From: Mesotaenium endlicherianum
Taxonomy: Eukaryota
Assembly (NCBI GenBank): GCA_009602735.1
Contig: WELA01003517.1
Span: 705,473 to 769,472 of the forward strand
DNA: 64,000 nucleotides
Direction of reading: 5' to 3'
The notes beneath the pieces are model-generated. The model searched no databases and had not been told where the DNA came from. It was given only the letters and a program-made list of their open reading frames with translations. Each line of letters opens with the position of its first letter. The stretch's first letter is position 1. Position numbers and translations under genes: made by a program. Below are positions 476 to 55,333 of the stretch, in pieces.

Positions 476-3387
476 CTACCACCTATTGGGATACGCCTCC
501 CGGTACTGACGGTCTTCGTCCCTGTTGATCTGGGCAACAGTCGCGTCCTTCACCTTCACATTCAGCAGCTTCTTGGCAACCCTGTCTTTTGCGGTCGGCT
601 TCTTCTTCAGCATGGCCGACAAGCTGGTGCCCTGCTGGCCCCGCCGGCTCCTTCGCCCCCCCGCAGCTGCAGCTGCCTCGCCCCCTTCCCCGCCGTCGAT
701 GCCGAGCATCTCCTCAAAGCCCTGGGCCGTGCCCGCAAGCGCGGAGCCTCTCAGGACGGCATCATTGTGCTCCCTCACTTCGCGCGCTCTCTGCCGCGAG
801 GCCCCCCCGCCGCGCTGCCTCTTTCTCCGGGCCGCCTCCTCGTCCTCCCCCGCCCTCCGCCGCACGTTTGCCACTGCCTGCTTGGCAGCGCGTGCAAGCA
901 CTTCCTCCACGCTCTCCCCCTCGCAGCCAGTACCACGCGCCTCGCCCACGGCGCTCTTCTCGTGCTCGGTGTGCACTATGCCGCTGCCGCCTGGCCTGCT
1001 GGGAGCAGCCCCCCTTGCTGTTGCTGCAGCCCTGCGAGTGCTTGAGCTTGGCTGAGCTTCTACAGGCTGGCCCTTGGCGTCCCTGGGGACTATGGGGCCG
1101 TGCATGGGGCACTTGCGCAAGTCTCGGCGCTGGCAGAAGCCTCCGCTCTTGAGGGGAGCCCCGCAGGGCTGCCCCGGGTGCGTGCTGAGGGGCTGGTAGT
1201 AGCTGGCCTGCATGTGCATGTCGCGCACCATGTCAGCCGGCATGCACGCGTCGTGGTCCACCCTCCCCCAGTGGTTGTCCACCAGCAGCCCGCGTGCGTT
1301 GACTGGCACATGCTCTTCTGCGCCCCAGTGGTCCAGGTGGGCTCCCCACGCGACAGCTGGCGCCTCCTGCATCAGCTTCTGCTTGAGCGCATCCGCCTCG
1401 GAGGCTTGCCCGCTGCTACGGCCAGGACCGCTTTCCCCTCCGCTGCCAGCTGGCGCAGCGCCTTGCCCTCGCTCCTCTCTCCCCCTGCCGCCGCCGTCCG
1501 CAGGCGTCGCATCTTCCAATGCCACATTAGCTCCGCCTGCTTCCACATCCAGCTCCCAAGCCTCTGCCAGGTCAGCACCGCCGCCAACGCCACCTGACTC
1601 GCCCAGAAGCGGTCCGCTTTCCCACTCGACATCCTCCATGGCGGCGTCGAGCTCGTCCTCCCCTCTGGAGCCACCCCCCCCAGGTCCCTCCTCCTCCGAA
1701 AGTGGGGGGAGGAGGCCCAGATCCTGGCACCTGGCGCACATGCGCTGCATCTCGTTCCGCAGGTCAATCACCTCCTTGAGCAGCGTGTCGCGCTCGGCCC
1801 TCTCGCTTTGCGGCGGCTCTGCGCGCGCGAGCACGTGCAGCCACTCCAGGACCGCAGGCAGGTGGCGCAGCACCAGCGGCCGGTGCAGCTCGCGCAGGCT
1901 CTCCAGCACCGCCGGATTTTCCGCCACTTCCCGCCCGGCCGCCTCCGCCGCCTCCGCCTGCCTCTCCGCCTCCCTCAGGCCCCTCAGCCCATACTCCTCC
2001 TCCTCCTCCTCCTCCTCATCTCCCTCACCCCCAAACATGTCTTGTGAGCTTGGGCAAGCGCCAACACCCGAGCTGGGTGCACCCATGGACACCTGGTGCT
2101 GACCTAGCTGCTCGTCTCGCTCTCCACACACGCCACCGCCACCGGCAGCCGCCTCCGGCACTGCTCCGGCGCCACCTGGCGCCTCCCCAGCAGCCCCCGC
2201 GTCCCCCCCCGCCAGGGTGGGCCGCAGGATGTCGAAGCACTGCCGCATCTGCTCCAGGGAGGACAGCAGCTCCGCGCGTGCGTCGGGGTAGCTGGCGCGC
2301 AGCTTCTCGTACTTGGCGCGGTACAGGGCCTGCACGCGCGCCTGCCTCTCGCGGCGCCGCCGCTCCTCCTCCGCAGCCCTCTCCCTCAGCCCGGGGAACT
2401 GCAGGTGGAGCACGTGCCGCAGGTAGCGGTAGCCCAGGCGGACCTGCCGGTAGTGCTCCCCGAACGCGTCGTTCCACCGCTCCAGCGTCTCGATGGCCGT
2501 CTTGCGCAGGAGCTTCGCGCGGGCGGCGGGCGGCGGCAGCGGGAGGTCGGTGCGGTAGCCCACCGTGAGCTGCAGGAAGCTCTCCAGGGAGGGCGCAAGG
2601 AGCGCGCGGAAGGCGCGCGAGCGCATGAACAGCACGTCGGCCGTCAGCAGCGCCATGTACCGCACCTGGCAGCATGCCCCCCCCCCNGGAAGCGGTCGAT
2701 GCGCTCGCGGCTCTTCGTGCTCCTGGCCTGGCCTCGCCCCCGGCCCACCCGCAGCACACCGCCACATGAACGAGCCCTTGCGTGTGAGGGAGAGGTGAAG
2801 GCAAAGGAGAAAGAGGGAGGGAACGAGACAGATAGAAATACAGCGCCTGTGCTACCCAGAGAGAGCCACAGATGTACCGTCACTACACTGCCCCTCTCCC
2901 CCCCACCCCTTCCCCATCCTCGACCCCGCAACTTGCCCGCCCGCAAGGCTTGTTCAGGTCAAACCAGCTACTGCTCAGCTCAAGTGCTGGTCCTCACCTG
3001 GGAATCGAAGCATGCCAGTGGTGCCCTAGGAGGCTGGGGCAAGAGCTGCAACGGCACCTGCGTGTGTGAACACCCTTCGTCTGACTGCATGACTCTGGTT
3101 ATGCTTCATGCAAAGATCCGTACCGTGCAAATCCGAATGTGCAAGTGTGGACCCCCGCCAACGACCTGCGTGTAACCAGACTTGTTGCAAGGGGGATATG
3201 GTTGTACCTGAGCATGATTCTTCACGAACTTCCCTTGCAGAAACTCGAATATGCTGCGGATGTTGTCGTCGGACTGACGACCAAAACTCTTGAGAGCCTT
3301 GAGCTTCCCTGCGTCAAGCTCCAACCCCGTGTTGCTCGTGATGGCATCTATGAGCTCGCTGACCTTCTCTCTGTCCCTAAAATCCAT
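476..3387 (-). CDS. UVSSA: UV-stimulated scaffold protein A homolog (transcription-coupled NER); exons 3387-3208, 2665-476
   Basis: GT-AG phase-0 intron joins MDFRDREKVSELID...KNHAQ to VRYMALLTADVLFMRSRAFR (VHS-like N-terminus). The C-terminal region has the UVSSA motifs NHWG and CGAPLKSGGFCQRRDLRKCPMHGPIVPRD. Confidence 0.9.
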
Positions 3388-3923
3388 ACTGTGGTTGAGG
3401 ACATGAATTACAACAGGAGAATTGCTCAGGGCGCAAATTCAGAGCATAACAACCGAGTCAACCCACTGCTATACCAGAGAACGAGTCTATAACTTTGAAC
3501 AATTTTAGCTTGTATAAGATTTACCACTGAGGGAAGCAGTGGGTACAGCGGTACTGAGTGGGTGAAGTGGGATTAATTTATGAACTTTCGGGGCACTCTC
3601 TCAGGAAGTCCTCAGAGCTGACAGCAACGGTAGCATTTGTGCATGGAGGAAAGGAGAGACCAAGTCGTGAGTTAGGACGCGACAACTGGCAATATAACCG
3701 ACTTCGTATTCTGTACGCCTTCCTTCGGAGTTGAAACCACTTGAAAGCTTTCGAACGAACTCGTTCTGACATGCATGCACTCTCACCCAATAAAGCGGGA
3801 TAAAGAAGCTGCACAGGCACATGGTTACCGCCTGCATGACAGCGGACAGTATTTTCATGCACTTGTCTTTAAGATGCAATCAGTTTGAAAAATCACCTCC
3901 TTCGAGAGTAACGGTGGTCAGCA

Positions 3924-6900
3924 ATGAAGGCCCTTTTCTGCGAACCTGATGGAACTCGGCAGACCTTCTTCATGCCTGCAAGAAAAGAGGATCCCGTATA
4001 CGAAGACGAGAGAGACCGCTTGAAGAGGTTGATAGAGGTGTATGGTGGTATATGGAGTAATTTTAGATGTGCGGACGGAAAGACCGTGTATGAGCTGGTT
4101 GAGGATGTTCATGATGTCAGCCATGACGCAGCTCTGCGAGGCCAGGTGAAGCATCTCCCTTGTTCTCCAGAAGTTTCTCACATTGCACAACTTTGACTTG
4201 ATGAAGGCCCCTCCTCCTAGACACACTCCACACGTGAAAGATACCCAGTCTACAAAATATGGAGGACGAGCCCCTGGCTGGTGATACGGGGTGTGACAAT
4301 GGAACCCCTCCTGAAGGTACACATTAAAGGCTACAACCTTAAACAGCCCACAGAAAGCTGGGATGAGTTTTGGGCCTCGCTTGGCGACTTTTTTTTTTTG
4401 TAAGTGCTTGCAGTCTCAGGCATGTTACGTATATCAGAGGGTTTGGCCATCTCCTGCTAGCATATACTCGTTCAAGTCTATGCAGCTGACAAACTGGTGT
4501 TGACATACGTATGGCGCCTCTCGCCTCTCGTTTGGAAGAGGTCTTGTCGCAGCGAAAGGCCGAAACAGTGGCACGTCGGTTCTTCCTGTGGGTTGACGCA
4601 GGTGTTCCTGCTCTCGAAGTACGTGGACAAGTGCGTGGAGTACAGCCGGCCGCTATCGAAGGACACCTACGTTGTGAAGAAGAAGCGGCCGTACCACAGG
4701 TTCACGCTCGAGCACGACGGGGAGATCGAGCGCCACGTGGCCGCCGCTCTGGAGCAAGACCCCGAGGTCTCCCTGAAGGGCAACACCTTCTGGCAGGAGG
4801 CGGAAGTGTCGCTCGGCATCGGGCACCCCTGGTCGTCCATCAAGGACCGCTACATGAAGCATCTGAGGCCGGAGATCGAAGCGCGCGCAGAACAAAACAG
4901 GGGGGAGCCAGCGGGTGCTGTCAGGCGCGGGGCGGCGCCAGGCAGCGGCGGCGGCGGCAGGCAGCTTCCAGCAGCTATGCGACCGCCAGCTGGGCAGCTC
5001 CGAGAAGAGGCTGGGGAGGGCGGCACCAGCAGCAGCGGAGAAGGGCAAGCTTCAGAGGGAGCGCCGCAGGATGACAGCTGGCAGCCAGCGAGGGCGGCAG
5101 AGGTAGGCGGGGACAGGAGGGGCTCCGATGGGCTCTCAGGCGGAGAGGCTGCTGCTGCTGCTGCCAGCCGGGATCCGCGCGCACGAAAGAGGCAGGCAGC
5201 GCGCTCGCCAGCCTTGGAGACTCAGCCTCAGTTCGACACGCGGCCCCGATATAGAGCAGCAGATGCGGAGCAAGCGGGGCCGCCCGCAGGGAGGCGCAGG
5301 GATGTGGCCAGAGGCGCGGGTGGCCAGAGGGGCGGCAGCCGTGAACTTGCGGGGGCGGCTGGTGGCGCCGGGCCATCGCCCCGCGGCCGGCAGAAGCAGG
5401 CCTTGCATGTCGACCTCCACTTTGACGGTGACGTGCGCGTGTCCGTGCGGGGTGATGGCGCACCTGGAGTGGACAGCGAAGAAGGAGGAGGAGGGGTTGT
5501 GGATGCGATGCAGGAGGCAGCAGCAGCAGGAGTGGCAGCAGCAGGGGGAATTGTCAGGGCTGCTCTTGCTCACCAGGGCTCTGATGGCACAGGCGAGGGG
5601 CGAGAGGGGGCAGTGCAGGGAGGAGCTGCTGGGGGAGGTGGCGCGCATGCTTCTGAGACGCGCGGGGGAAGTGGGGGTGCTGGGGGTGGGGACCGCGTGG
5701 AGCCCTCAAGGAGGCAGCGGGCAGAGGTGCCGGCCAGGTCAGCGCTAGGTGGCGGCAGTGACCACGGCGATGGTGTGCCGGAGCATGCCGGGGACGAGAG
5801 AGGCGGCCATTCTTCTGGAGAGGAGGGTGGGCGGGAGCAGGGGCCGTCGCCTTTGCCGCGTAGAGAGGGGGGGCACGTTACGAGGAGGAGGCGCAAGGTG
5901 CGCACATGTGGCGCCTTTGCCATCGTCGAGGAGCGACCTGGGTCGGAGGGCGAGGACGGGCTCGAGAATCCGAGGGAGGCGAAAAGAAGCCGTAGCGGGC
6001 CTGGGGAGGTGCCTGCTGGCAGCGACGCAGAGGCTGAGCAGGAGAGGGCCGGGCCCCGAGGCCAGGAGCACAGTCCTGCGGGAGCAGAGCTTGCGGGGCT
6101 GCAGCCGCGGCAGCTGCAGCGCCTGCAGGAAGTGGTCACGGCTGTGGCCCTGCTGATGGATATGGTGAGGCCTGCTCTTCTTAGCCTGCTTGTATCACTG
6201 TCAGCCCTGCACCTGGCACTCCCCCACCTTGCGGCTCAGGGTGGTTATACTGTGCGTATTAAGGTAAGACTTTCTCCTGCTGTGTGTCTGCAGGTGCCTG
6301 TTTAGAAGCCTCTCTGAGTGGGCATGCTCTCTTGTTGCAGTTGTGTGCGGCAGTGATGCTGCAAGGTAACAGCGGAATCAGCACTGGGAGAGGGGTAGGC
6401 TGACAAGGTGTTGGTCCTGACTTGTGGTTGACAAGACGGGGGCCTCCTGGGAGGAAGTGATGAAAGCTCTGGAAGACACATCGTCGGACTACCCAGCTAC
6501 TGTGGCCCTTCTTCGAGCATCTAAGAGCACAGGTATTGCTTCTGCTCGTGGGGTGGGTCTGCTGTGCCTCTTCAGCAACTGTTGCCCTAGGGCCTCAACA
6601 ATCGATTGCTGTCCCTGCTGCTGCTACTGCTGCTGCTGCTGCTACTGCCGATGCTGATGCCGATGCTTAGCTTGACAAGAAGTTTGCTAGATTTGATGAG
6701 GGTCAAGGCGTCGTGTAGGGTCGAAATAGTGGCGAGAGCAGTCTCAAGGGCTTGCTCGCTGACTGGCGGTGGCAATGGTGGTGGTGGTGGTGATGCTCCC
6801 TGCGAGGCAGCTGGGGTGAGGGCGGATGCGCTGAGGCCGTGGAGCCTCAGGGAGGACCGCGTTTTGCTGGCGCACTTCAGAGGCGACCGCGGCGGCAATC

Positions 6901-7001
6901 TGCGATTGCCCACTGACAAGATCGTGGCCGTCCGTGGTCAGCGGAGTGTGGACCTCCGCCTCCAGTTCTTGACAACTGGCATCCGAGAGCCCAGCTTGTG
7001 A
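3924..7001 (+). CDS. RAP1: RAP1/TERF2IP-like telomeric protein (BRCT - Myb - long linker - RCT), ~690 aa; exons 3924-4145, 4602-6164, 6436-6532, 6811-7001
   Basis: All introns are GT-AG with consistent phases (2073 nt including stop); the last two acceptors were chosen by phase and homology. BRCT-like LFCEPDGTRQTFFM...RLKRLIEVYGG...FLLSKYVDKCVE; Rap1-type Myb FTLEHD...KGNTFWQEAE...HPWSSIKDRYMKHLR; RCT-like EEVMKALEDTSSDYPATVALL...GVRADALRPWSLRED...RGQRSVDLRLQFL. Confidence 0.85.
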
Positions 7002-8638
7002 GGGACGGGGTGCAGTTGGGAGGAGGCTGGGGCAGCCATCTATTCCTATGTAGGGAGTTGTGCACATTGAGGAATGGACGGTCGTGCTTAGATGATTGTA
7101 CATACTTTGAAAGTAGAGCGGCTCTGTACAGAAATGACCTGCAGTTGGCATGTTGATTCCTTCAGATGTGTAGTGTCTTAGAAGGAGGTGAATGAGGGTG
7201 TAGCCTTTATGGGGCATGCAACGTGCCGAACGGGTGTAGTTGTGAATTTGCTGATATCGATCTGTACAAGCTAGATGCAGGAGATCATCAAATAAAAATA
7301 CCCCCCTCTCCGTCATTTGGGTTGGCACCCCTATTTACCTCGTTTGATAAGGAGGGGAACGAGATAAACGGTGATGTAAGACAATTGTTTAAACAATTGC
7401 CTTGACCATGTTACCCAGGAGTAGTCACTCCTCCAGTCCTATGTTTTGTCTGCCGCAAGAATCATTCTCAGTTGTGCAGCGTGATTGTAACTATGAGAGG
7501 TTGAGACATGCGCCTCAGCAGTGGACCTCCATGGGAACCATTTCCTGAGGCATTCACGCTACAATACCCACAACTATATCCGTGCAAAGTGCTTCTTAGA
7601 CTATGAACAGATGTGCAGGTGTGGTCACCTGTAATCAGTGTATGTAAATAAACGAGTTTGCTTCTTGACTGCAATGGCAAACAGTTCGAATAATAACACC
7701 TATATCTTGTGAGGTTGTGGTGGATACCAAGTGGGTGCGCAGTATGGAGTCTTCTTTTTTCCTGCTCTTGCACGTAAATACACATTGGGATCAAGTGGTA
7801 GCATGGTGACGTCTTCAAGTGTCAACACGTGAAGGAATGCATTGATTGGCCCTCTCACATCCATGTGAAGGTAATCTTGATATAAACTGATGGCTGCTAG
7901 TAAATAGGAAAATGAACTCAAATAAACACCATAGACCCGACTCATGTCACTGATTAAGCGATTCATCTATTCCCTCTGCTTCTTTCATATATAAAGTGAT
8001 GAGCTGCTTAATTTGTGTTGAGCCCCCACAGTCGCGTAAGTTCTGACATGTACTGGTTGCTGCTTATATCACTGAGACAAGATGCCGAGCATGCACGTAC
8101 CTCCTGATGCACGTACCGTCGAACACTCTTCCTACGGCTCTGCATGCCTTGCAGATGGACTGCCTTCCTGCAAGGGCTAACAGATACTGCACTTGGCCGA
8201 GTGTCTGGAGGAGCAGCGCAGCGGTATGAAGGAGGCTGCGACCATGTCTGACAACCAAGGCATTGAGGTACTGTTCATGCAACGAGGATGCCAAGAATGC
8301 CGGGCACGTCAATCCCTCGAGTGTTCACACTTGGTCCTGCTCCTGTGGCTATGCATTTCGGGTTTGGAGGGCAGAGCTGATGCGAAAGATCTCGCAGCTG
8401 AAAGCATGTACGTGTGCACGGTGAAAGTGGGCTTCTCTTTCACAATAAGGGTCGCGAGTCAAGTCCACCAAGGCTGCACAATGCACAAGGAGCAGCCCCT
8501 TCACTTAGCTGGCTTGCAGTAGCCTAACTTTTTTTTTGGGAAAATGAGTGCAAGCTATAGCTGATGCAACTGCCGTCCCATGTAAGAAAAGCAACTGGAG
8601 CACTCGCCAGAGTTTATGTGTCAAGGACAGAGTCTTTC

Positions 8639-10892
8639 TTACGATGGATGCTCGCGATCATCTGACTCTGATGATCTTATAGGCACCCCATTTCCATTGA
8701 CATCTGTCTCTAGCTCTAAGCGCACGCCGGCGGAGTGAGGTTTTAGTCGCTCTCCGAACAAGTCCTCAGAGATCTGCCCATCCTGGGCTTGCTCCTCCCC
8801 ACCACCTAGCTCTACTCGTTGTCGTCCAGCAGCTCGTGACGCATTGCTGTCCCTGACAGACGTTGCTGCTGCCAATGCGCTAGGAGCAGAGGCAGCAGAG
8901 CCCTCGCGAGCCTCAGAGGAGGAGGACGCTGCCTCCTTCACACCGGCCCTGGCGGCTTCGCTGCTCTCTCCGCTCGGCTGGGCCCCCGCATCCATTGCTG
9001 CTCCTGCTGCTGGCTTCGAGCCCGACCACGAGCCTCCGGCGAAGCCTGACCCGGCAGGCTGTGAGTCGCCCAGCAGGCCGCCATACAGGCCGGGGGACCT
9101 CACGCTGCTGAGGTACTGCTTCAGCTTGTCAGTCACTGCAGGCGAGGACGAGGACGCGGCGGAGGCGTCCTTTCCCTGCTGCGGCCCTCCCTTGTCCTGC
9201 TGGCCCTGGCCCTTGCTTTTGGGGATGATGGTGGTCTGCACCAGCGAGTCAAACTTGCCCACCAGGCTGCTGCCCTCCCGCACCCCGATTGGGCCGGGCT
9301 CCGTGCTCACGTCAGCGCCATCCGAGACGCCGACCACGACTGCCAGCTCGCCACCGTACTGGTCCGAGAACGACACGCGCGCCGTCTTGGCCCTCTTGCT
9401 CGGCCGCTGGCCCCCCTCCCCCTCGCTGCTGTCCTCGCTCTTGGCGCTACTTCTGCCCCTGGCCTCCTGGGAGGAGGCCAGCCCGGGGGTGGCCGGGCTC
9501 GGCACCCCCAGACGGTTCAGTATAGTGTTGTACGCCAGGACCGCCGCCGGATCTGCAGGGTCGGGCGGCGCAGGAAGCTCGGCGGGGGGCGTCGCGGCGG
9601 CGGGCGCTGACGAGTGCGCCGCGGCGGGAGGAGCCTTGCGGAGCACATAGGTGCGCGTGGAGGCTGCGAAGCGCAGCGATTGGCCGGCTTCCAGCTCCAC
9701 GGGGACGTCCTTCTTGAGGCGCTCGTTGGACACGAAGGTGCCGTGCACGGACCCCATGTCGATGACGAAGACGCTGCTCCCTCCGCTCGCACGCACGCAC
9801 GCACGCACCACATGGGGAGCCGGCAACCCTGTCAGTGACTCATGCTTGTCTGTCCCGCTGCCCGCCCAGGCCCATGTGCCTGTGGCATATGATGGCACCT
9901 AGTTGATGTTTGACAGAATGCTGCTGGGTCAAGTGAAACACTCCTCCCTCCCACTACCTCCCTCCTCCCTCCGCCCTCCTCAGCAGAACCAGATGTTCTG
10001 AGTTGCAGCGGGACAATGACTGCCTGTCACCTCGCAGTGTTGCATGCAGCGCACTGATATGCCCACACGCGACATGCCTCTGGCGCAATCTGACAGGGGC
10101 ATGCTGTCCCAATCACGACGAATCAGCAAGCACGAATATCGGCGTCCCCGTACCTCCCATTCTTGTGGTGCACGACTGCAGCGTGTTGCCGCGAGACGGA
10201 GGGATGGTCGAGCACAAAGTCGCAAGTTGCCGCTTGGCGCCCAAAGACAGCTCGCTTCCGCTCAATGGGGACGCTGTCCACTGCTACCCCGTCCTGATGG
10301 CACACAGCGGACAGGTGTCGCAGAATGCTGTGAGTAATTGTGGATCAAAGGTGACCCTTCTCCAAACCCAATGGATGCTTTGCGACAACCAGCTTTCCTC
10401 TTTATGGGGGGGGGGGAAAGACAGCCACAAGGTACACGAGACTTTGACCGGCATGTCTGCTAAGAGGATATGAAAGCACATAGCAGCTCACAAGAGGAAT
10501 CATAATCTCAGAGTACGAACCAGAAGTGACATGCATATAGTGCCTGTAAGTGATGTTTGCAGCAGTAGCCTTAAGCAACCATCGCATGAAGAGGCCACCA
10601 ACATGACTTTAACAGTCTTAGGTACCTTGATGACTTCCAGGACGTAAGCGCCAGGCCTCGGATCTGTCGCCCATTCTGGTGGTTGCCAAGTAGATGCACC
10701 GCCACCAGCACTGGCAGACTGTCCAGTTGGGATGCTACCATTAGCAGCTGCCCCTGAGGATGGTGCAGTGCCACGAGGCTGTGGAGGTGCCGGCTGAGGG
10801 GGAGGACGAATGGATGAAGATGAGGCCGTGACATTGAATGGCTCAGCAGATTCTGCTTTTTTGAAGCGATCGAGCGATAATCTATTCAACAT
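8639..10892 (-). CDS. FHA-domain PP1 regulatory protein, NIPP1/PPP1R8-like; exons 10892-10626, 10293-10154, 9773-8639
   Basis: Plant-type N-terminus LDRFKKAESAEPF and WQPPEWA. FHA motifs FGRQ...DHPSVSRQHAAVVHH...IDMGSVHGTF. PP1-docking RVxF motif (RVSF, ~9368-9379) followed by GGELAVVVGVSDGADVSTEPGP. Confidence 0.85.
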
Positions 10893-11587
10893 TTTGGTCG
10901 CATTAAATTGTGAGCGCTACATGCATGCCACAGACTACCTATGAAGCGGATAGTGGATGACAATCATGACTAAGCGGACCTCACGGTATCCCACCACTAC
11001 AAACAATAAGCATGAAAGTTGTGCTCAGGTCTTGTGACTACTGTCTCTTACTCCTTACTTAACGAAACTACAGCGTGGGGAAGACAGCTTTGACATAACC
11101 TCTGACATTCGATTAAGTTATCAATGTGCTATTTTAGTGGTGTCAGAGGGGCACAGCCATGACATGGTTCAGTGCAATTCAGTGAGCATAAAATACAACA
11201 TATTATACATGCATGATGAGAAGATGTGACGATGAAGGCCATTTTGTTACCTTGCTGACATTCTGCGTTTGCCGTGACTGCGCGCGTGCGACACCCGTGC
11301 GACATTTATCCGGATATTACAAGAAATGCGAAGGGCTTGCCCTCCGTGTCACACACTCCCCCCCCTTCTCACCCAACATTAGTTTCTTATATCCTCCCCC
11401 ACTTCAGTCTAACTGCTAAGTGACTTACCAATTTCCGTAGTACATTCTCGTCATTTGGACTCCCTACAGCAGACGAGCATTTGCGTTTCTCCTGCAGGTG
11501 TATAGTCCAAGTCAATTGAGTAGCAGAAGGGGTGCTGGGAGCTCCTCTCCAATTTGCCGTGCAGCTGCATAACACGTTTGCATAGTG

Positions 11588-14500
11588 ATGGCGAAGCTTG
11601 AAGCCTCATATGCATGCCTGCCAGCCACTCAGCGTGGAAGAGGAATTCTCATTGGTGGTGACCCGGACAAGTCCTGGATTTCGTACTGCAGTGGTAAATC
11701 TGTCATCTTGAGGAGCTTAGAAGACCCACGCCTCTGCGACGTCTATACAGAACACTCGTACAATACTACAGTAGCAAGGTTCTCCCCCAATGGAGAGTGG
11801 GTCGCGTCAGGAGACGTGTCGGGCCAGGTTAGAGTGTGGGGCCGAGGAGGCGAACATAAATTGCGGTTTGAGATGAGGGCTCTGGCCGGCAGTATAGACG
11901 ACATGCAGTGGTCTGCTGACGGGCAGCGCATTGTGGTATCTGGAGACGGGAAGGGCTCCCAGCTGGTCCGAGCCTTCATGTAAACATATCTCCCGCTTCT
12001 TCTCACGTGCAAAGCCTACTCATTCTTTTTCAGAAAATGATACAGATGTGCACAGCGATGGCATCTGAACAACTTGTGACTCGAGAGATGCACAATCATG
12101 GCCTCTAAATTTTCAGCTTTTCGCGTTCCTCAATCTCTACCTGGATGTTGTTGCCCTTGAGATATCACCTGGTTGCCCGAAGCCACCCACCTCCATTTCT
12201 CAGCTACATAGGATGACTCTCCATGACGATAGTAATTAGAGATCGATGGAGGATGAGAATTCTGTGGGCCACATGGCAGGCCTCCGGCTTCTATGCGACA
12301 TGCCGTGACTGCGGCCGCCCCCAGACATATGTGCCTCTCTGCATCACGAGCACCCCCACTGTTGCTGTGAGGGGAGGGGGAGGGAGAGGGGGCGAGGGAG
12401 AGAGTTGTAAGAGACCTGGTAACGGCAGGATTGGAGGGACATGCAAATAGTCATTAATGGGCGTCGGTGCCGCCGCAGTGTGCGTGCATGACGAGCTGCC
12501 ACGGGCTGCCACGTGTCATGCGTGCGCTTGCATGCAGGTGGGACTCGGGGTCCAACGTGGGCGAGTTTGAGGGCCACTCCAAGCGGGTGCTCAGCTGCTC
12601 CTTCCGCCCCACCCGGCCCTTCCGCATCGCCAGCTGCGGAGAGGACTTTGGCGTGAACTACTACGAGGGGCCCCCCTTCCGTTTCAAGACCTCCCACAGG
12701 TGAGGTGTGCCCTCCATCCATCGCAGCTCCCGCTGGGCTGCCCTCTGTGCCGCTCATGGTTAAACTATACACCTGGCTGTGCTGCTGGCATGCTTCTGTG
12801 TGGTGTGTGTGTGTGCGTGTTAGCGCGTGTGCACGCGTGCCCGCACATGACCAACCTCCTGCCTGCCTGCCTGCCTGCCATGGGCTCGTCCTCTCGTTTC
12901 CGTTGACAACCTGCTCTCCCACTCCACTCCACCTCCCGCACTCGCCGCCCCTTGCAGCTGGTGCTATTTGTCTGCCTGCCTGTGTGGCGACTGCCTGCGT
13001 CTGGCTTAGAGTGGTCTTGAAGGGGGGGCAGGGAGAGGGTGTGATGTGGTGGCTCATGGCTGGCTCCTTCCTCCTTCTATCTGTTTGATTTTTTTTCCCC
13101 GGGAGGAGGGCGTGTCAGAGAGCACACCAACTTTGTGAACTGCGTGCGCTACTCGCCTGATGGCACGCGCTTCATCACCGTCGGATCGGACAAGAAGGGC
13201 ATCCTGTTTGACGGGCAGACGGGGGAGAAGCTGAGCGAGCTGGCGCAGGAGAACGGCCACACAGGCAGCATCTATGCCGCCAGCTGGAGCCCCGACGGTC
13301 AACAGGTGGCATTTGTTCAACAGCACCCCCTGCCCAGCTCCAAGCCTCCCTCCCTCCTCCCGTACTTGCGGCATGATTGTCTCTGTGAAGCGCTTGACTC
13401 GTGTTTCTAAGGTAGACACCCGTGTTGTTGATTTTTAGTGCATGTCGAGGTGTGTGGCTGTGCTTGTTGCGCCCGCCATCTCGATGGTCAATGCAGCGAA
13501 GGGGGTGCACCCATTGTTGGATGGCCACGCCACACAAGTGTATACCTCGGGTGGTTGCCACAGCTGAAGCGGTGTGCATGCAATTGATGGCATTGCGCTG
13601 GTGGTGGTGCTGGGGTGGGAGTGGGTTGGGCCGGGGGGGGCGGGGGGCGGGCAGGTGCTGACTGTGTCGGCAGATAAGACTGCAAAGATCTGGGACATGG
13701 CTGCTGACGGTTCGTCGGGGAAAGTGAGCACCACCTTCTCGTTCGCCGAGCGGCCCTCCGTGGACGACATGCAGGTGCGCCCGCATGCCCGCCTGCCACT
13801 TGGCTGCTCGTGTAGCCTTCCTTGGGAGCTGGCTGGTTGCATGACCCCCCCTTCCTCCTCCTGCCCTTCCTCCTGCCCTTGCCCGCCACACCCTGAAGGA
13901 AGCTGAGCATGCAGCACCTCCTGCTTCTGCTCCTCCGGGTGCTTACGGCTGCGCGTCCTCCCGCTCCTGCTCCTTCCCTCTCCTGGCTGCTCGCAGCAGC
14001 TTGGCTCAGCCCCTTTCCGCTTGAGTGACCCCCCCGTTGACCTCAAATGACGTCAGTTGCCCTCCGTGGTGAGGGAGCCAGCGCATAGCCCCTTCGCCCG
14101 CGAGGAGCTCATGCTCATATCTCCTCCAGCTGGCGCCACTGTGACGGGGTGCTGCCCTTTCCCTCCTCTTTCAGTTGCCAGTCTATTTCTCGGAGGGCCC
14201 CCCCAATTCTAGCCGCCAGCATGTGGCCTTCTCTTGCCCCCTGTCGCCACTGAATCAAGCCAGCTCTGCGTCGCTTTGGGGCGTTGGGCCGCTCTCGCAG
14301 GTGGGCTGCCTGTGGCTGCCCGGCCACATCATCACCGTGTCTCTCAGCGGCAGCATCAACTACCTCTCCTCCTCCTCCCCCGCGCTCCCCCCCAGAGTCC
14401 TGGTAGGCCACAGCCGGAACATCACAGCCCTGACTCTGGCCCAATCTGATGGTGCCAGCGAGCTCTACACAAGCAGCTACGACGGCGTGGTGGTGAGGTG

Positions 14501-15988
14501 GCGCATGGGCGAGGGAGCCCTGGGAAATATGGGCGGCAAGGGCCACAGCGGCGCCGTGAAGGCCATGGCTGTCGGAGGAGGGCACCTTGTCACCTGCGCT
14601 CTCGACGACACCGTACGGCACCCCCCCTCTTTCCTCCCATCCCATCCCCTCCCCTGTCCTCCCTCCCCTGCCCTCCCTTGCTTGCTCCCTCCCTTCCACC
14701 AACTTCCCTTTTCCCTCTACCCCTTCCGCCACTTCTGGGTCCGCTCTCTCCAGTCATGCCACATTTCTGAAACATCGGCTGCACTTGCTGGTGGGATGAA
14801 TGAGAGGTGCCAGATGGTACACTTCCATGGGAGTATCAGCGACATGGCATAGGGAGGGACTTGGGGCAGTGACAAATCTAGCAACGAGAGGATCTGCCGC
14901 TGTGCTGACACGCTCAAGTGCGTGCGCCTCTATGGCTCTAATCTTTGGGGTCTTGTTTGAGAGTGGGTGCCAATCATGCCCCCCAGAGTCCTGAGGGGGT
15001 TTCTGCTGACGTGTCACATTGGTCTTCAGGTTGGGGGGGGGGAGAGGGGGCATAATGTGCAGGCAATGAGGATTACAGGGGATCTAACACCCAAACGAGC
15101 GCACCCGCCCCCTGCGCCACTCTGTGTTGTGACAGGTCCGACGGAGCAAGCTGCCAGCGGAGCAGTACAGCGACACGGAGCCCACTGCGCTTGGAGCGCA
15201 ACCGCACGACCTCTGCGTGGCCGCATCCGCGCCTGAGCTTGCCATCGTTGCAACCGCGAAGGGCCTGGTCCTCATGCGAGGCTCCGAGAAGCTGTCGAGT
15301 ACCGCTCTTGGCTACGACGCCACGTCGGCAGCCTTGTCGCCAGATGGCGCCGAGGCGGCTGTTGGCGGCTCGGACGGCAAGCTGAGGATATACAGGGTCA
15401 ACGGCGACAGCCTCGAGGAGGAAGCGGTGCTGGAGAAGCACCGAGCAGCCGTTGTGATCGTGCGCTACTCTCCCGATGGCTCCATGATTGCCTCCGGAGA
15501 CCAGAAGCCCGAAGCTGTTCTGTGGGACAGGAGCTCGAGAGAGGTACAAACCACCCCATGCCCTTTAAGCCACTTCTTCTTTATATCGCTTTCAGAGTAA
15601 GGGCATCATGAGCTGATATCTTGCAAAGAACCATATTCTACGCTTGTTTCGTCTAATTTTTACTACATATTCATCTTTCAACGCCCCTCTTTCAGCACTG
15701 TAGTTTGTGGTGGCGCTTGCTGGGTGTTCTCAGGTGAAGGTGAAGAACATGCTGTACCACACGGCCCGCATCACGTGCTTGGCGTGGGCACCGGACAGCC
15801 AACATTTTGCAACAGGCTCAGTGGACACCAGTGTAATCGTGTGGGACGTCAACAAGCTGGCCTCATCTCGGCTGACTATTAAGGGCGCCCACCCAGGAGG
15901 CGTCAGTGCGCTAACATTCATAGACAACAGCACCATATTGACGGGCGGGGATGACGCGTGTCTACGCACATGGGCACTCCCAGTATGA
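11588..15988 (+). CDS. AIP1: Actin-interacting protein 1 (WDR1), WD40; exons 11588-11979, 12538-12699, 13119-13305, 13655-13774, 14301-14612, 15136-15543, 15734-15988
   Basis: [81 protein letters not shown] and [17 protein letters not shown]. Splice phases are consistent. Confidence 0.93.
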
Positions 15989-16392: not shown

Positions 16393-18112
16393 TTAAGGTG
16401 GTGGAGATTCTCTAAGGATGTCGTAGACAATATCATCTATGGTAAAGCCTAACACCTTCATCATGTCTTTGACTCGAGCATCAGGGTTGGGATGCTTCTG
16501 CGCTCTCAGCCATTCGTAAACAGTGAAGTACTTCTTCATTCCAAACAGCTCCATCGCCTCAGGGTTGTAGACGATCCCCATCTTTCTGCTCATCTGTAAA
16601 CGAAACGAGTTCAAGATTCAGTTCTACGGACTGCAACCCCCCAGGACAGTGACAGGGACTTGCCTGCAAAGAATGTCTTAGAAGTGATCTTCATCAATAT
16701 ACCCAAACGGTTCAATTGGTCCACTCTCTTTTGTACTTAAACACAACACGAACGGGCATACACATTAGAAACGAGGACAGCAAGAGCCGCTTGCAACTGC
16801 TGCAGCTGCAGCATAAAGTGATGATAAATGCCTCCCGTGATCCATGACAATGCAGCAGCGTAGGAATGAATGAAGAAAGAGGATGCACCTGATGGGGAAC
16901 CAGCATGGCAGCGTAGCGCGCCAGCTCGCCAGCTCGCCAATCAAGTACAGCTGGCAACCACGGATATGCTGTGTCCAGCCTCACGAACCAGACACGCACA
17001 TCTGGTAGCTCGGAGAGCTCTCTGGGATCTAGTGGGTCGTCTCTCGTGTAATTGATTGTGAATCCTACGGTGCTGTCTAGGAGGTCCCTTATGTTTCCCT
17101 CCGGCTCTGACACGTTATCACCTGCTCTGCACCCAGCCCCAAACCATCCCGTAGAGTTCTGAACTATACTCTCAATGAGATCAGAACTGTCACCTCCAGG
17201 TAAGCTCGTGCCAGACGAATTGATTCCATGTGTCGATGCATCCTTGAACCAGAAGTTGAAGTCATACAGCAAGACTTCGTTCAAACAACGGTTCCAAGTG
17301 TTGCAAGTAGCAAGTGCACAGAAAGTAGCAAAGTTCTTTATCTGCTTCACACGTCTGTATATGTATGTTATGCACTCGAGCCATCAGCCACCATCAACCT
17401 TCGCATCACGCATGTGTGGCACAAATTGTCAGAACAAAACCCGTCTAGTAGGATATGCAGCACGCACGTACAAAACTCACACTCACCTACTCGTGCGACA
17501 AAGGACCGCAAGACTTCATGTGCAGCTGTCAAGTCGATGTCCCGGATCATCTTGTTGTCAATGGTAATCTCAAAGCGACCACTTGTAGGAGGAGGGCTTG
17601 GCGATATATCCTCACTTACTTCATGCCACATGCAGTAGAATAAATATGTTAGGGAACCATAGATACTTCTCTTCTGTAGTTCAAAAGCACAATCTTCAGC
17701 AGCCAAAGCTGTAACTGCTGTGGCTAACTTCCTCATCAGAAGTACTCAAGCTCACAAATTTACAGTTTAGAAGAAACATATAGACGCAGACATCACTACC
17801 TTCGTCATCCAAGCTGAAGTCGAAGTTGCCCTGTGCAGCTCTGAGCTGCCGATGAGTGGGGTCAGCACGAGTTAACAGTGCTGCAACTTGACAAGGCCTA
17901 CTTGCAAATACCCTGTGAGATTGCTTACAACTCCTTGGGCACTGCTGACCAGCGCTGCAGATTAAGTTTTGAGATACTACGTGTTTAAAGACCTGGCCAG
18001 GGTATACAAGAGTCATAGAATTTTGGTTTGCGAATGACAGGCATTTATGACTCTTAGAAAGATCAAGCGAAGCAAGAGAACACAGTCGCTGGGGTGCACA
18101 AATAGTGGCCAT
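16393..18112 (-). CDS. CRR6: Chlororespiratory reduction 6 (chloroplast NDH assembly factor); exons 18112-17800, ~17618-17487, 17121-16889, 16593-16393
   Basis: DPRELSELPDVRVWFVRLDTAYPWLPAVLDWRAGELARYAAMLVPHQ and GIVYNPEAMELF match the CRR6 family. The N-terminus is Ser/Arg-rich and transit-peptide-like. The exon 2 acceptor is uncertain. Confidence 0.88.
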
Positions 18113-18736: not shown

Positions 18737-19216
18737 AATACTACATTGAATGCATGCAGCTAGGCTTTCACACGTGACTACTTTGATCATCGGATGTGCC
18801 GCTGATTTAGCTCTCTTGGCCCAGCAATATAAACGTACGTTTTAGACATTCGCTTCGCAGCCTAAAAGTATCAGGACTGCTCGACATCCCCTCGTGAGCA
18901 TATGAAGGAGCTGCACGGACATGTTAGCAGTCTTTCGAGCTTTGAGACAAAATCGAGGGCGATATCTTACCATGTGCATGCTTGAAGGTCTACTCAGTGG
19001 TAGAAGGCTTGCGCAGGCATCCTTCCGGAGTTGGGAGTTTCGTGACCATAGGCTTCAGCCTCAAGGTTATGACAAATATCACCAGCGTAATGTTGCTGAA
19101 GCGCTATAGCGAGCACGCGTTTAACAGGTAGAGTTAGTAAGTCTATGATCCGTTTGTACGCTTCCTTATTTATTAGCGTGGGCTCATAGACGAGATCAGG
19201 GATTTTACTTCCGGAC

Positions 19217-22200
19217 ATGAGTCATCCACCCTTCAATTTGCAGCAGGTTCCTCGTCAGTATCCCGCTTATGACCCCCCTTCTTACTTTGACGACCCTTCT
19301 GCCCGTAATCCTCATCAAGCACGTCTCGGACTTGGTGAAGAGCCAGCACCTCGCTATGTCCCCAGCCCCGTTCAACTACATGGAGCCGGCTTGAAAGTTC
19401 CAAGCTCAGAGGATGGTTCTGCTTTGTTGCAACTCCTGCAACATAAGAACTTATCTCGGGGAGATGTCAACCTGCTGGCTCGCAGCAACATTGACAATAT
19501 AGCTCCTCAGGGTAGACTTTCACCATTGGGGTTGATGTCAAGCGGAGGCGCTGCTCATGAGGGAGGCCTGTGGCATCTTCCAGACCCTGCTGTTGCAGCA
19601 GTAGGTCCTAGCTATCCGACACAGCTGGCTACTCCGGGGCCTCTCCCAGCTGCCTTGCCTCCTTATGGGCTACCTGGTCATGCTCCAAGTATAGGTGGCG
19701 CCTTGGCATCTTATTTGGCAACTCAAGGGACAGGGCAAATTTCTGCATGGGATATGCATCCTGTACCCACTGGTTTTGGTGGACTACCTTCTTATGGGGG
19801 GCCTTTGCATCCGCCGCATTTTCCTGGTAGTAATTTCAGACAGGCTGGAGCACTTGCGGGTGAGTACTTACCAAATGCAGCAGTTCTTGCCAAAAGGCAG
19901 CAGTACGAAGCTGCACTCAATCACAGGCAGCAGCTTGAAGAGCAGCAGCAGCAGCAGTTGTTCATAAAGCAGCAAAAGGAACTGTTATTCTTTCAGATGC
20001 AGCAGCAGCAGCAGCAACAACAACAGGTTCAGCAGCAGCAGCAGCTGCTGCTCCTGCAGCAGCAACAACAAGCTCAGCAGCAGTTGCAGCAGCAAGAGGT
20101 TCAGCAGGAGCAGCAGCAGATGCAGCAAGAACAACATTGGCAGGGTTCTTCAGAGGTGCATGCAGATGGCCAGCATGTGGTGTCAGAACAGGGGAGTGCG
20201 AGGCCTTCCCTGAGCGGGTCTGAGCTCCTGAGCCTTCTGCAGGGCTCCAGGTCTCGCTCCATGCCAAGGCCCCAATCCTCCTCAGACACTCAGACGCATG
20301 CCAAGCCAGCAGATGCAACAAGCCTTGAAAACCACAACTCTGAGCAGGACAGCCAATATGGAGCATTCGCATTCGGTACAGGTCAACCTCTCGAGGCCGG
20401 CAAGGAGGGTGCGGGGAGAGGAGCAGTTGCTCATGGACCCATCGGGCCCCCCAGTAAGCAGCCCCAGACCCAAGCAGCAGCAGCAGCGGCAGCATCTTGG
20501 CTGGGCGATTCCCCCTCCGCGCACTCCTTTGGGCCTCTCTTTGGGGTTCCCCAGCAGCTGCATGCTGGCCATCCACCAGGGTTTCCAGACGCCAGAGATC
20601 GTATCTTCAACCCAGGAACTGCCCCTCTTCCTCCCGGGCCGCTTGCTGCTTCCTCCTCTAGCCCTGGCCCTGGCCCTGGCCCTGCTGGCCTTCTTGGGCT
20701 CGGCGCCGTTGGGGGGCTGAGCCAGGACCCGGACACTGATCAGGGTGGTGCTCTGAGCTCGTCTGTCAACGGCAGTGCAAGCCGTGCGTCCGCCACCGGC
20801 GCTAATCAGAGAGGCTTGCAGGATGCCATCATGGCAAGGCAGCTGGACCCCCCACCCTTGGAGCCGCCGCCGCCTGCTTTTGCCAGCAGCTCGGATCAGA
20901 TCTTCAGCGGGAGGCCCAAGGGGGGGAGGGGGGGGAACGCCAGCAGTCTGGGCCCACCCGGCCCTGCTGCTCATCACCTTCAGGAGCAGCAGAGTCCTGT
21001 AAGCGGCAGGGCTGTGGGGCGGCCTGCCCGCGCTTCCTCCTCCTCCGGCGCCCCTCCTGGGCCAGCTGTCGCACCTGCGGCATCCGATGGGAGGCCTCTG
21101 GCAGGCGCACCGAGGAGGAACTCGGGCGGCACAGACCCACTTCTCATGAAGAGGCAGGGGGGAGCGACGGCAGCCAAGCCAGCATCTGGTGATCAGAGGG
21201 CCCCCGCGAGTGACAGATCAGCAGCAGTGCCTGGGGAGGGCGGCCACAGCGGCCCCGCCAGCCTTGCTGAGCTGGCAGAGCCACGGGGAGCTGGCATGTG
21301 GGCACCTGGAGGCCCTCTGGCGCCTAATTGGGGGGAGGAGGGGCTGCCAACGGACCAGGCGGGCGGTACGATGGGGGGGCAGAATGGAGGAGGCCCCCTC
21401 CTGAGAGACGAGGGCAAGGGCCATGGCAATGGCAGCGCCAGCCAAGGGCATGAGGGCAGCAGCAAGTGGACACCGAGACCCATGGAGGTGCCAGCATGGC
21501 TGCTGACTCAACCTGAGGCTGCCGGCCAGCATGACAGTGAGCACGGCCAGCACAATGCCGGCGCTGGCCTTGTGCTAGCCCAGAATGGCCAGCCTCATGC
21601 TCGTGCTCAGGCTTCAGGTGAGGGGAGGAGCCTAGAGGTCTCCTTGGCGGAGGAGCTGCAGGTGCCGCCGCTGGCATCGCAGATTGACCGGCCGGTGACC
21701 GTGGATGCCCTCAGCTCGGAACCGGGCGACGCCATCCTGCAGGCCAAGCGCCAGGTGGCTGCGCTGCAGGAGCAGCAGGAGCTCCTGAGTGCAGCTGAGC
21801 TGGGCGAGTTGAGCCTTGGTGGCGAGAGAGGGGAGCAGCAGCAACAGCAGCAGCATGGGGCTGGCAATGGCGGCACCTCCATCTGGGACCCTGTGGATCA
21901 CGCAGCTGCGGGCAAGAGAAGCAGCGGCGGGGACTCATGGCCCCAGCGGGGCGGCCTGTCGCGCGCTGTCAATGGCTTCATGGGTGGACAGGTGGCGGTT
22001 GCGCAGCAGCTGGAGGAGCGCAGGCCTGAGGCAGGTGGGCCATCTGATCGAGCTGAGAACGCGAGAGAAGCAGCGGAGAGCCAGTTGGTAGTCCAGCCAG
22101 GTGGCATTCAGGTGCGGCTCTCTCCCTTTGAGTGAACACCAGGGCGCAGAGAGCACTTTTGCCGGCGAGCTACTGGGCACACTCCCTTCATGCTGCATGT

Positions 22201-25200
22201 CCCTCTCGCGTCGTTGTGTGATTCAGCCCCCTTCGACAGCCTCTGCCAGGTACCCGCACCTGTATGGAGGCTGTCAGCAGGGCGTGCGTAGGGGATGCAG
22301 CCCATCTTCATTCTAGGCCCACTTCTTGCCAGCTGTGAGAGTAGGACTAGGATGGTGCCCCACAAAGTGTCACTATGTAACATTTGTAAGGGGCACTGGA
22401 GCTTATTCCTGTGCAGGCAGTCCTTGTATGCATCGAACACATGGTACTGGGAGTAGGAGTCGAAGGAGTTGAAAAAGCAGGAGTGAGGGAGGCAGAAGTG
22501 CTCAGGCCTACAGATGCGAGTGTGTTGCTCCCTCTCAGCATCGTGTGCACCTAAGCAAAAGGGAGCGTGTGTATGACTGTGTGTGTGTGTGTGTGTGTGT
22601 TTGTGTGTGTGTGCGTGCTCGCATGCGCTCTCGCGTGCATGTGCAGATCCCCGGCGCCCAGAAGGACAGCAGGAGCCGGCTGATCAGCAGCGAGTCCCCC
22701 GTGGGCTCCAGCTCCCCCGCCGCATTCTCGTACCCGTCGACGTCGCCCACCATGATGCGCATGGGCAGCTTCCAGGGCCGCCAGAGCCTGGACGGGGGGG
22801 GGCGCGCCCGCGGCGAGATGGAGCTCATCACGCGCAGCCTGGTGGCGCTCTGCGACTCGCTGATCCCCACGGCGGGCGAGGAGATGCGGCGGCGGCTGTT
22901 CCTGGCGCGGCTGGACCAGCTGGTCGCGCGCAGTTGGGCGCACGCGAAGCTGTTCTTGTTCGGGTCGTGCGCCAACGCGTTTGGCGTGCGCGACAGCGAC
23001 ATCGACGTGTGCTTGTCGGTGGACGACCCGCAGGCCTCCAAGGCCAACCTCATCGCGCGCATGGCCAACATCCTGCGCTCCGACGGCATGCAGAACGTGC
23101 AGGTGTGTGCGGGCATGGGGTGGGCTTTCTGCTACCTGAATGAGCTGCGCTGCTGCTGCTGTGTGTGTTGTGTGTGTTGTGTGTGGTTTCTGTAGTGTGT
23201 GCGCGCATGGAGAGAGGGGGGGGAGGGAGGGGGGAGGGATGCCTTTGGTGCTGGTGCTACTGGATGACCTCAAGGCCTGATCCTCGGGGGAGGGAGAGAG
23301 TGCTGGCCCCGGTCCACGCCCGCTTTACCCACGCTGGCTCTCTGATGCGCTTCACTCATTCGCATTGGACGGCAGTGCGGAGCTTCGGAAAGGCCTTCCC
23401 CAGGTTCTTCATGTGCTGCTGCTGCTGTTGCTCAGGGGCAGTCCTCGGAGCTCCTGCACTCGCGGGCTTGCGTGGCGTAGCTTGCTTAGCTGGCACCTAT
23501 GCCTGCTGCCTGCTCCGTCCTTGCTGCTGGTGGACTGACGAACTCCTGGGGCGCCACAGCAGGTGCCGACAGTGCGACTGCGGCACTCGTGAACCCTCCT
23601 TATGTGCTGTGTCGCCTTTCTCCTTCCGCAGGCGCTGACGCACGCGCGCGTGCCGGTGGTGAAGTTCATGGACGCGGGCACTGGCATCTCGTGCGACATC
23701 TGCGTGAACAACATGCTGGCCGTGGCCAACACCAAGCTGCTGCACGACTACGCGCAAGTTGACCGGCGGCTGCGCCAGCTGGCGTACCTGGTCAAGCACT
23801 GGGCCAAGCAGCGCCAGATCAACGAGACATACCGCGGCACTCTCTCCTCCTATGCGTAAACTCACAAGCATATAGCCCTTCCCCCCCCCCNNNNNNNNNN
23901 NNNNNNNNNNNNNNNNNNNNNNNNNNNNNNNNNNNNNNNNNNNNNNNNNNNNNNNNNNNNNNNNNNNNNNNNNNNNNNNNNNNNNNNNNNNNNNNNNNNN
24001 NNNNNNNNNNNNNNNNNNNNNNNNNNNNNNNNNNNNNNNNNNNNNNNNNNNNNNNNNNNNNNNNNNNNNNNNNNNNNNNNNNNNNNNNNNNNNNNNNNNN
24101 NNNNNNNNNNNNNNNNNNNNNNNNNNNNNNNNNNNNNNNNNNNNNNNNNNNNNNNNNNNNNNNNNNNNNNNNNNNNNNNNNNNNNNNNNNNNNNNNNNNN
24201 NNNNNNCCCCCCCTCCTATCTATCTGTCTATCTGTTGCTGTCCCCTGCATACATGCACACACATACTCGCACACGCGCTCGAATGTGCAGCTGCCTGCGC
24301 CTAGTCCCACGCCGCCAGCGGCTTTCTTGCTGCAGGCAGGATCTGCACAGGGCTGAGCGGATCTCTTACTGATCCAGGCTCGTTGTATCAGACAACAATG
24401 CTGATGTTAGGGTGCTCGGGGAACCTGTTGCTTGTCCTGGTGCTCGTGCTAATGCTGATCCTAGTCGCACGGTGCGGGGCTTTCTGGTGAGCAGGTACGT
24501 GCTCATGTGCATCTTCTTCCTGCAGCAGCGCAGGCCTCCCATTCTTCCAGTCCTGCAGGTTGGTTCCCCTCTGCCCCTGCTCATTGCATGCGCGAGCACC
24601 CATGTGTACTTAGTGTGTTTGTGTGTATGCGTCCATCTGGTCTCCTCTGCTCCTTTAACGAAGTGGTGGCGGTGCGCGCGCGCGTGATGAATGCATGGAA
24701 TGCCAGGAGATGGACCCCACGTGCGTGAAGCAGGTGGGGGACACAGTGTGCGCGCACTACGACCGCGTGGACCAGCTGCAGGAGTTTGGAGCGCGCAACA
24801 CGGAGACTGTGGGCGAGCTGCTGGGGGCCTTCTTTGAGTACTGGGCCTTCCGTCACGACTACAATCGCGCCGTCATCAGCGTCCGCCTCGGCGCATATCT
24901 CAGGTGGACCCCAACTTCCCAATGCCACCTCCCTCTCTATCTTGTCACGCTCTCCTGTTCTTGCCCTCTTCTTCACTCTCTTGTGTGGAGTCATTCAAGT
25001 TTTTGTTTTACTGCAAGGCTGAACAACAATATGGACCAATTTCAGTTTAAAAAAAATGCCAATCCTTAGCATTCGGCTTTTCAGCCTTCTCAACCAATTC
25101 TATGTGTTTTGTGTATATGGGGCGGGGGGGTGTGTGAGGACAGCAAGGACCAAAAGGACTGGACGCGGCGTGTGGGCAACGAGCGCCACCTCATTTGTAT

Positions 25201-49931: not shown

Positions 49932-50672
49932 TGAAGGGGGCAAAATGCCCTAGTGGAAGTGTAGTGACTTACGAGGAAAGGAACTAGTTGCAATCATACT
50001 AAAGAGTGCAGCGGCATGTCACTAAGAAAGCTTAGGAAAATTACTTGACATTTTGAGTGGCAAGAAATTGCTCACAAATGATGTAGGATGAAAGGCCTTG
50101 TCATTACAAACCCGTAGAAATTTACAGAAGTGAAAACTGATAAGAAACAAAGAATTTCTGCCTATTTACAATTTTCTGCCTAAGTGCTCCTCTCAAGGAG
50201 GAAGCTACGGATTGTTTTTGTTCGTCAAATCGTCCCTTCCAGAATATTCGTGAGTAAGCCAGATCAGTCTAATCTGACGTGTAGGGCCGAATTGACGTCC
50301 ACATACATGCATCGTCATTACTAGAATATTCTATCTTAGACGCGCTAGGCTAAACCGAAACTTCTAGGTAAATCGACCTAGTCGGCACTCCGCGTCAGCC
50401 GAACTTACGTGAAGGTTCGAGTTCATTCTAACGGGCCGGATCGCTCGACGCTGTCGGTCAATCCGACGGTCGCGCTCACCGCGAATTAAGGACAGTCGTC
50501 AACCGACCTCAAAAATGATTAAACTTCGGAAATCCATAACTCTCTCAATACTTGACCAAATTCGATGAACTTTTTATCAAAATGACCACAAAAATGCACT
50601 CTATACTACTACACAATCAAAACATACTTTCATGAAACTCAAAAATGCACTTTATAAACCTATAACCTTACA
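49932..50672 (-). repeat. 3' LTR
   Basis: About 96% identical by manual count to 55334-56093; adjacent to the PPT. Confidence 0.95.
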
Positions 50673-55219: not shown

Positions 55220-55333
55220 CGTTGGTGCTGCCTGCTGTCCCGCGCGCTCAACATGCTCGACATGTTCGCCTCCTCCAGCTGCCGTTGCGACTCCATAATA
55301 TAATATGCAAACTAGCCCAGCTCCGATACCAGA

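Follow-up and report, generated by a model that had tools for sequence, protein, structure and literature searches.

The described protein closest to the one considered here is human RAP1 (TERF2IP; structures 8rd4 chain D, 7oz0, 1fex and 3k6g), a chain of 399 residues in which a BRCT domain, a single Myb domain, a linker and a C-terminal RCT domain follow one another. Human RAP1 is recruited by TRF2 through RCT helices 1-2 (PMC8653790, in the part drawn on here). Its BRCT patch K39/R40/R55 binds Ku70, the Myb arm reaches the minor groove with R133, and patch and arm jointly block ligase 4; the Myb domain itself is described as having no positive surface charge (PMC12221994, likewise drawn on in part). 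Budding yeast Rap1 (3cz6, 3owt, 4bj5), in contrast, binds DNA directly through two Myb domains. The RAP1 of Trypanosoma brucei, which stands outside the animals and fungi, is long and divergent, with basic patches and with Myb-like domains in addition to its Myb (PMC8402208, as far as its cited sections go). For Arabidopsis, the relevant part of a table published in 2013 gives 'no identified orthologue reported' (PMC3797388). The present analysis concerns a stretch of 64,000 nucleotides from the streptophyte alga Mesotaenium endlicherianum, a green alga near to the land plants (contig WELA01003517.1), referred to throughout as the window, in which a gene on the plus strand at 3924-7001 almost certainly encodes a member of the RAP1 family. 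A complete BRCT-Myb-RCT homologue of RAP1 in a host of the green plant lineage, which is what the first-pass annotation had proposed for this locus, is supported by the results described below. The gene adds to a known family a member from a lineage for which no report was found: in the literature searched, in main texts rather than supplements and with most subscription journals outside its coverage, no paper among those listed dealt with RAP1 in a plant or alga.

The coding sequence forms one open frame of 690 residues, joined from the four phase-consistent exons that had been proposed and interrupted by three introns that are GT..AG throughout. The spliced protein is identical in sequence to a public gene model (P0001, jgi/Mesen1/2694/ME000167S01841, 690 residues), which already carries a precomputed Myb_Rap1 label and whose tag Mesen1 we take to denote Mesotaenium endlicherianum. 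Gene names in the ME-number style are used for this species, a member of the Zygnematophyceae, in the cited part of PMC10419180. Transcript reads bear out all three introns. For introns 1 and 2 the evidence comes from three raw-read runs (X6, X9 and X12) and one set of contigs (X1): the intron 1 joint is crossed by one read in X6, five in X9 and none in X12 (6 reads, two of three runs) and by one X1 contig, and the intron 2 joint by 3, 15 and 1 reads, respectively (19 reads, all three runs), and by no contig. Intron 3 was not listed in the first read mapping, where adjacent repeats were skipped; with four runs mapped to 6790-7400, the end of exon 3 appears as a loose end before 6808, and 68 reads (12+20+32+4, all four runs) link it to exon 4. 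Alternative AG acceptors exist, and the RNA reads agree with those chosen. Altogether spliced reads were present in six of six raw-read RNA runs, from three studies under the same species label, and in X6, X7 and X12 the first mates lie mainly on the minus strand, as is expected of plus-strand RNA in stranded libraries. At 5652-5798, a GC-rich stretch of exon 2, three raw-read runs show zero depth and no joint; X1 contigs span 5263-5599 and 5690-6164, and it is from contigs and from the unbroken reading frame that exon 2 is taken to be continuous here. The read differences T5533C and G5534A, which adjoin loose ends at a GCA repeat, are probably due to misplaced reads of other genes.

The protein has a Myb domain that scores 36.9 bits against Pfam Myb_Rap1 (PF08914; cut-off 27.1) and for which a sequence search of the PDB gives human RAP1 (1fex and 8rd4) as the sole significant matches. 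A HMMER search with a 99-residue query covering the end of the BRCT and the Myb retrieved 37 proteins at E <= 0.001, and 35 of the 36 besides P0001 contain Myb_Rap1. The closest profile relatives are P0017 (380 residues, a EukProt transcript model), P0023 (527 residues) and P0025 (682 residues; both from Logan), which share the single-Myb BRCT-Myb-RCT layout and align with the algal protein from end to end, at an identity of only 20-35% for the BRCT domain and 38-44% for the Myb. All four look-alike proteins (the algal one and these three) retain the RCT, with a domain identity of 20-48%. P0017 and P0023 pass Pfam Rap1_C (29.2 and 37.2 bits), and P0023 also passes BRCT_2 (34.7 bits). Profiles built from these three relatives, without the algal protein, recover both of its ends: residues 1-170 score 105 bits (best of 1000 shuffles 6.8; best other protein domain 58.7) and residues 571-690 score 41.4 bits (best of 1000 shuffles 7.2; best other protein domain 8.0). 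A profile of all four sequences finds human RAP1 at E 2.1e-23 with the three blocks in order, positions 3-167 aligning to residues 18-189 of 8rd4 chain D (72 bits) and positions 570-660 to residues 318-396 (10.2 bits); human and yeast RCT chains are also among eight profile matches. The collinearity of three blocks with human RAP1, claimed earlier for this locus, holds, and with the junctions seen in RNA the BRCT-Myb-RCT order lies in one chain.

Structure prediction agrees with this arrangement, more firmly so at the N-terminus than at the C-terminus. The whole-protein model was made from an alignment of four sequences, P0020 being left out because its ARID region was misaligned, and has a predicted local distance difference test (pLDDT) score mostly of 70-90 over residues 1-170. 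For this model Foldseek ranks first the human RAP1 chain from the structure with DNA-PK (8rd4_D, E 4.8e-5). In VIA comparisons the predicted fold of residues 1-103 matches the BRCT of XRCC1 (Z 12.3, root-mean-square deviation (rmsd) 2.0 over 90 residues) and that of human RAP1 (7oz0, Z 11.2, rmsd 2.8 over 88). An N-terminal BRCT is thus predicted both by this fold and by the profile alignment to human residues 18-101, and each of the top three ESM Atlas clusters for residues 1-170 has both Myb_Rap1 and BRCT_2 (scores 0.90-0.91). Since fold searches with the whole model returned almost only BRCT folds, the C-terminus was folded separately, giving six main predicted helices in two lobes (pLDDT 75.9, predicted template modelling score (pTM) 0.41). 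Its best Foldseek matches are to the human RAP1 RCT-TRF2 structure 3k6g (E 0.035 and 0.066), with fission yeast Rap1-Taz1 at rank 6; human RAP1 is hence the best structural match of both predicted models. In VIA, lobe 1 places 3k6g at rank 14 among UBA-like domains (Z 5.4, rmsd 1.6 over 48 residues), and the sole match listed for lobe 2 is the yeast Rap1 RCT 4bj5 (Z 4.8, rmsd 2.2 over 43). The fold evidence is consistent with an RCT yet weak when taken alone, and the six-helix domain is recognised through the look-alikes and not directly; fission yeast Rap1 (2l3n) and the budding yeast structures appear as weak sequence or fold matches of the C-terminus.

In several features the algal protein departs from human RAP1. 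It is longer, it has a Gly/Ala/Arg linker of 395 residues that is predicted to be disordered, and the BRCT contains a short insert after its first strand which, together with a Trp after the GG motif, is common to P0017, P0023 and P0025 and not to the animal rows. Basic runs lie in the linker at residues 267, 305, 444, 502 and 535, which might serve as nuclear localisation signals; they are not common to the four look-alike proteins. The linker also includes an island (residues 342-356) whose alternating hydrophobic pattern recurs in P0025 and in the variant of it, P0041, but in no others among 51 proteins. As the pattern was drawn up after both sequences had been seen, it is a lead rather than a test, perhaps towards a lineage-specific binding or dimer motif. 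The Myb, as in human RAP1, has no net positive charge (-5 over residues 108-165, -1 with the basic arm included), which would fit an adaptor, as judged from sequence, rather than a DNA binder of the yeast type. The tandem Myb and Myb-like domains of the budding yeast type are absent, there being only one Myb stretch in the protein, and Pfam Rap1-DNA-bind finds no match in the 690 residues.

How widely the gene is shared is less easily read from the relatives. The 30 clusters looked up, which leave out seven of the 37 proteins, include eight with names, namely this gene model, the transcript id of P0017, one fish, four arthropods and one fungus. The named arthropod matches (P0005, P0014, P0029/P0043 and P0037) have at least two Myb stretches and no Rap1_C, unlike the single-Myb form, and in the fish model P0003, which has no Rap1_C match either, BRCT-Myb is present twice, probably through a fused or duplicated gene model. 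Three word-indexed homologue searches gave the query only (1 of 168, 1 of 438 and 1 of 7995 candidates) and are uninformative on range, the largest having been so swamped that it missed even the query's own other rows. None of 136 pattern matches was confirmed in two metagenome scans with nearly identical patterns.

A number of results weigh against taking the gene for a RAP1 that came down by descent in the green lineage. In Pfam, Myb_Rap1 passes, as the check suggested for the annotation asked, but there is no BRCT match (PF16589) in the protein and Rap1_C (PF11626) reaches only 14.6 bits, over profile positions 3-83 of 84, under its cut-off of 24.2. Structure prediction likewise returned human RAP1 at both ends, though the C-terminal match is weak: the 3k6g alignments have an rmsd of about 10.5, none of 120 matches reaches E 0.001, the VIA matches of both lobes stand at background Z, the 5.4 of lobe 1 being tied with many UBA domains, and no Rap1_C cluster was found in the ESM Atlas for residues 572-690. 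The three closest relatives come without a stated organism, so that the range within green plants is not set by them, and the group that they form with the algal protein has support of only 70/26. Could the protein then be an unrelated BRCT-Myb-UBA chain with a C-terminus that merely resembles an RCT? For lobe 1 the match to UBA domains does equal or exceed that to 3k6g, and the UBA of USP25 is among the weak sequence matches; against this, the only listed match of lobe 2 is the yeast RCT, two close look-alikes pass Rap1_C and the profile finds RCT chains of both human and yeast, which makes such a coincidence highly improbable. Contaminant DNA or a mis-joined model is barely credible and already largely refuted. 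Fungal and animal sequence is frequent in plant assemblies, DNA-PKcs being an example (PMC10419180, in part), and exon 2 has the stretch at 5652-5798 without raw-read cover. The gene is nevertheless contiguous, without an N gap, with UVSSA on one side and with the plastid factor gene CRR6 about 10 kb downstream on the other (the first downstream gap is at 23891), 90-93% of sampled words occur in four runs of one study, whose run kind is unrecorded, and the spliced reads recur in every raw-read RNA run. Plant-type neighbours and transcripts together thus make contamination unlikely, as had been argued from CRR6 and WRKY; the WRKY gene, although real, is about 52 kb off and beyond several N gaps. 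A less remote alternative is that the gene was acquired long ago by horizontal transfer, from an animal or a fungus, and gained host-type introns later. P0012, which has no Myb, and the near-duplicates P0029, P0038-42 and P0044-46 were dropped from the tree rows. In a BRCT and Myb tree of 19 chosen proteins the algal protein, its three look-alikes and a single fungal row are split from the rest at 92/83, so that in the best trees it stands apart from the animal rows; approximately unbiased (AU) tests, however, do not reject joining it to the fish-type rows (p 0.079 and 0.072) or to the single fungal row (0.39). A Myb-only tree sets the four look-alikes beside a fungal Myb pair (98/89), and no named plant relative appears among the eight named of the 30 clusters. 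The BRCT insert and the Trp, which three look-alikes of equal depth have and the animal rows lack, speak for the other side, and trypanosome RAP1 already points to an origin near the root of the eukaryotes (PMC8402208, in part). Of the annotation's question of whether the protein nests within animals or fungi, the part on animals is answered by the best trees in the negative, and transfer from either is left unrejected by the AU tests; transfer is judged improbable, vertical descent is the simplest reading, and inheritance from early eukaryotes is considered likely.

The role of such a protein can be framed by analogy with human and fission yeast RAP1. It would be a non-DNA-binding adaptor, docked on telomeric chromatin by a Myb-type binder of telomere repeats, that restrains end joining at the chromosome end. 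Its C-terminal helices would take up a helical motif from a TRF-like protein, its acidic Myb would not bind DNA alone, and BRCT and Myb might engage Ku/DNA-PK at the end and so block ligase 4. A TRFL7-type protein would be the best candidate partner: TRF2-like TRFL7 homologues are reported from the green algae Klebsormidium and Chloropicon (preprint, bioRxiv 10.64898/2026.01.29.702503, in part), and TRB genes likewise from Zygnematophyceae (PMC12616469, in part). That the single Myb and the RCT imply a partner with a RAP1-binding motif, as had been supposed, does not follow, for the RAP1-binding site of TRF2 is missing outside most vertebrates (neither invertebrates nor the majority of fish have it), and in trypanosomes it is the Myb of RAP1 that contacts TRF (PMC8653790, section 8 and the other parts cited). 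A telomere-associated adaptor is moderately favoured, and so is the scheme as a whole, whereas a specific block of Ku/DNA-PK is doubtful. Only one of the four human contact residues is basic in place, K39 aligning with R30 (Arg in all four look-alikes) and R40, R55 and R133 with D31, N46 and Y105; the fish row likewise has no basic residue at the R40 position, and a Lys-Arg pair at residues 102-103, which lies higher up the arm by two to three residues and is kept in all four look-alikes, might serve as the Myb arm. The three contact residues not kept in place, with the missing TRF2 site, also give weight to a true RAP1 orthologue that acts mainly off telomeres, serving as an adaptor in chromatin or in transcription, or that binds DNA through basic runs, such as those at residues 100-103 and 502-506, in the way trypanosome RAP1 does through a basic patch (PMC8402208, in part). 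Mammalian RAP1 also has non-telomeric roles (PMC4924339, in part), and membership of the family does not therefore fix the site of action. Yet RAP1 is telomere-associated in every system listed in the cited part of PMC8402208, the RCT is retained throughout the look-alikes, and the linker runs differ between the four proteins, so that action away from telomeres or direct DNA binding has a minor, if appreciable, probability.

If the algal protein is indeed a telomeric adaptor, its distribution bears on how plants protect chromosome ends. DNA-PKcs, the target of RAP1 in humans, is reported from M. endlicherianum, and from every non-flowering group but not from angiosperms, in the cited part of PMC10419180. 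RAP1, TRFL7 (from the preprint) and DNA-PKcs together yield a testable hypothesis of co-loss, put forward tentatively, in which an animal-like TRF2(TRFL7)-RAP1-DNA-PK block to end joining at telomeres survives in streptophyte algae, perhaps in non-flowering plants as a whole, while RAP1 and DNA-PKcs were lost jointly in flowering plants. If true, this would explain both the lack of plant RAP1 finds and the different protection of blunt ends in Arabidopsis. The question of a plant shelterin becomes directly testable, with the algal RAP1 as bait for finding its partner among TRFL and TRB proteins. The surprise is limited, since an early origin already followed from trypanosome RAP1 and the public model was already labelled Myb_Rap1.

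Table 1. Features of the RAP1 gene, its product and the neighbouring genes (positions in the window).
Feature	Position	Strand	Details
5' untranslated region, approximate	3789..3923	+	RNA contig from 3789 spanning intron 1
Exon 1	3924..4145	+	Residues 1-74, ATG at 3924; covers first three quarters of BRCT
Intron 1	4146..4601	+	456 nt, GT..AG, phase 0
Exon 2	4602..6164	+	Residues 75-595: BRCT end, Myb, long low-complexity linker, RCT helix 1
Intron 2	6165..6435	+	271 nt, GT..AG, phase 0
Exon 3	6436..6532	+	Residues 596-628, RCT helices 2-3
Intron 3	6533..6810	+	278 nt, GT..AG, phase 1; contains CTG and GGT repeats
Exon 4, coding part	6811..7001	+	Residues 628-690 and stop, RCT helices 4-6
3' untranslated region, approximate	7002..7400	+	Read depth falls off at about 7300-7400
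BRCT domain	3924..4688	+	Residues 1-103, spans intron 1; predicted fold
Single Rap1-type Myb	4701..4874	+	Residues 108-165; preceded by basic run at residues 100-103
Linker, Gly/Ala/Arg-rich	4905..6089	+	Residues 176-570, predicted disordered
Hydrophobic two-strand island in linker	5403..5447	+	Residues 342-356, low-confidence prediction
RCT domain	6105..6977	+	Residues 576-683, exons 2-4; two predicted three-helix lobes
FHA protein exons	8642-9898	-	
WD40 protein exons	11573-15985	+	
CRR6 (plastid factor) exons	16715-17383	-	105.7 bits
Gln/Gly/Pro-rich open reading frame of 981 codons, then palm and PAP-associated domains	19190-25100	+	Probably a terminal nucleotidyltransferase of the Cid1 type whose head is long and disordered
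Initiation factor IF3 exons	35403-35852	+	
Kinesin motor exons	42999-45242	-	
Ty3/gypsy retrotransposon	50663-55351	-	gag, protease, reverse transcriptase, RNase H, integrase and chromodomain in several frames; single Ns nearby
WRKY gene	58679-60581	+	Two WRKY domains; an intron interrupts the second
RING protein exons	63414-63998	+	

The nearest neighbour of the RAP1 gene is the UVSSA gene (476-3400, minus strand; UVSSA_N 84 bits, DUF2043 90 bits), with which it stands head to head. The two transcripts start no more than about 100 bases apart near 3740-3790, and in X12 the strand of the first mates flips near 3740, which suggests that the UVSSA and RAP1 genes, both concerned with genome maintenance, share a two-way promoter.

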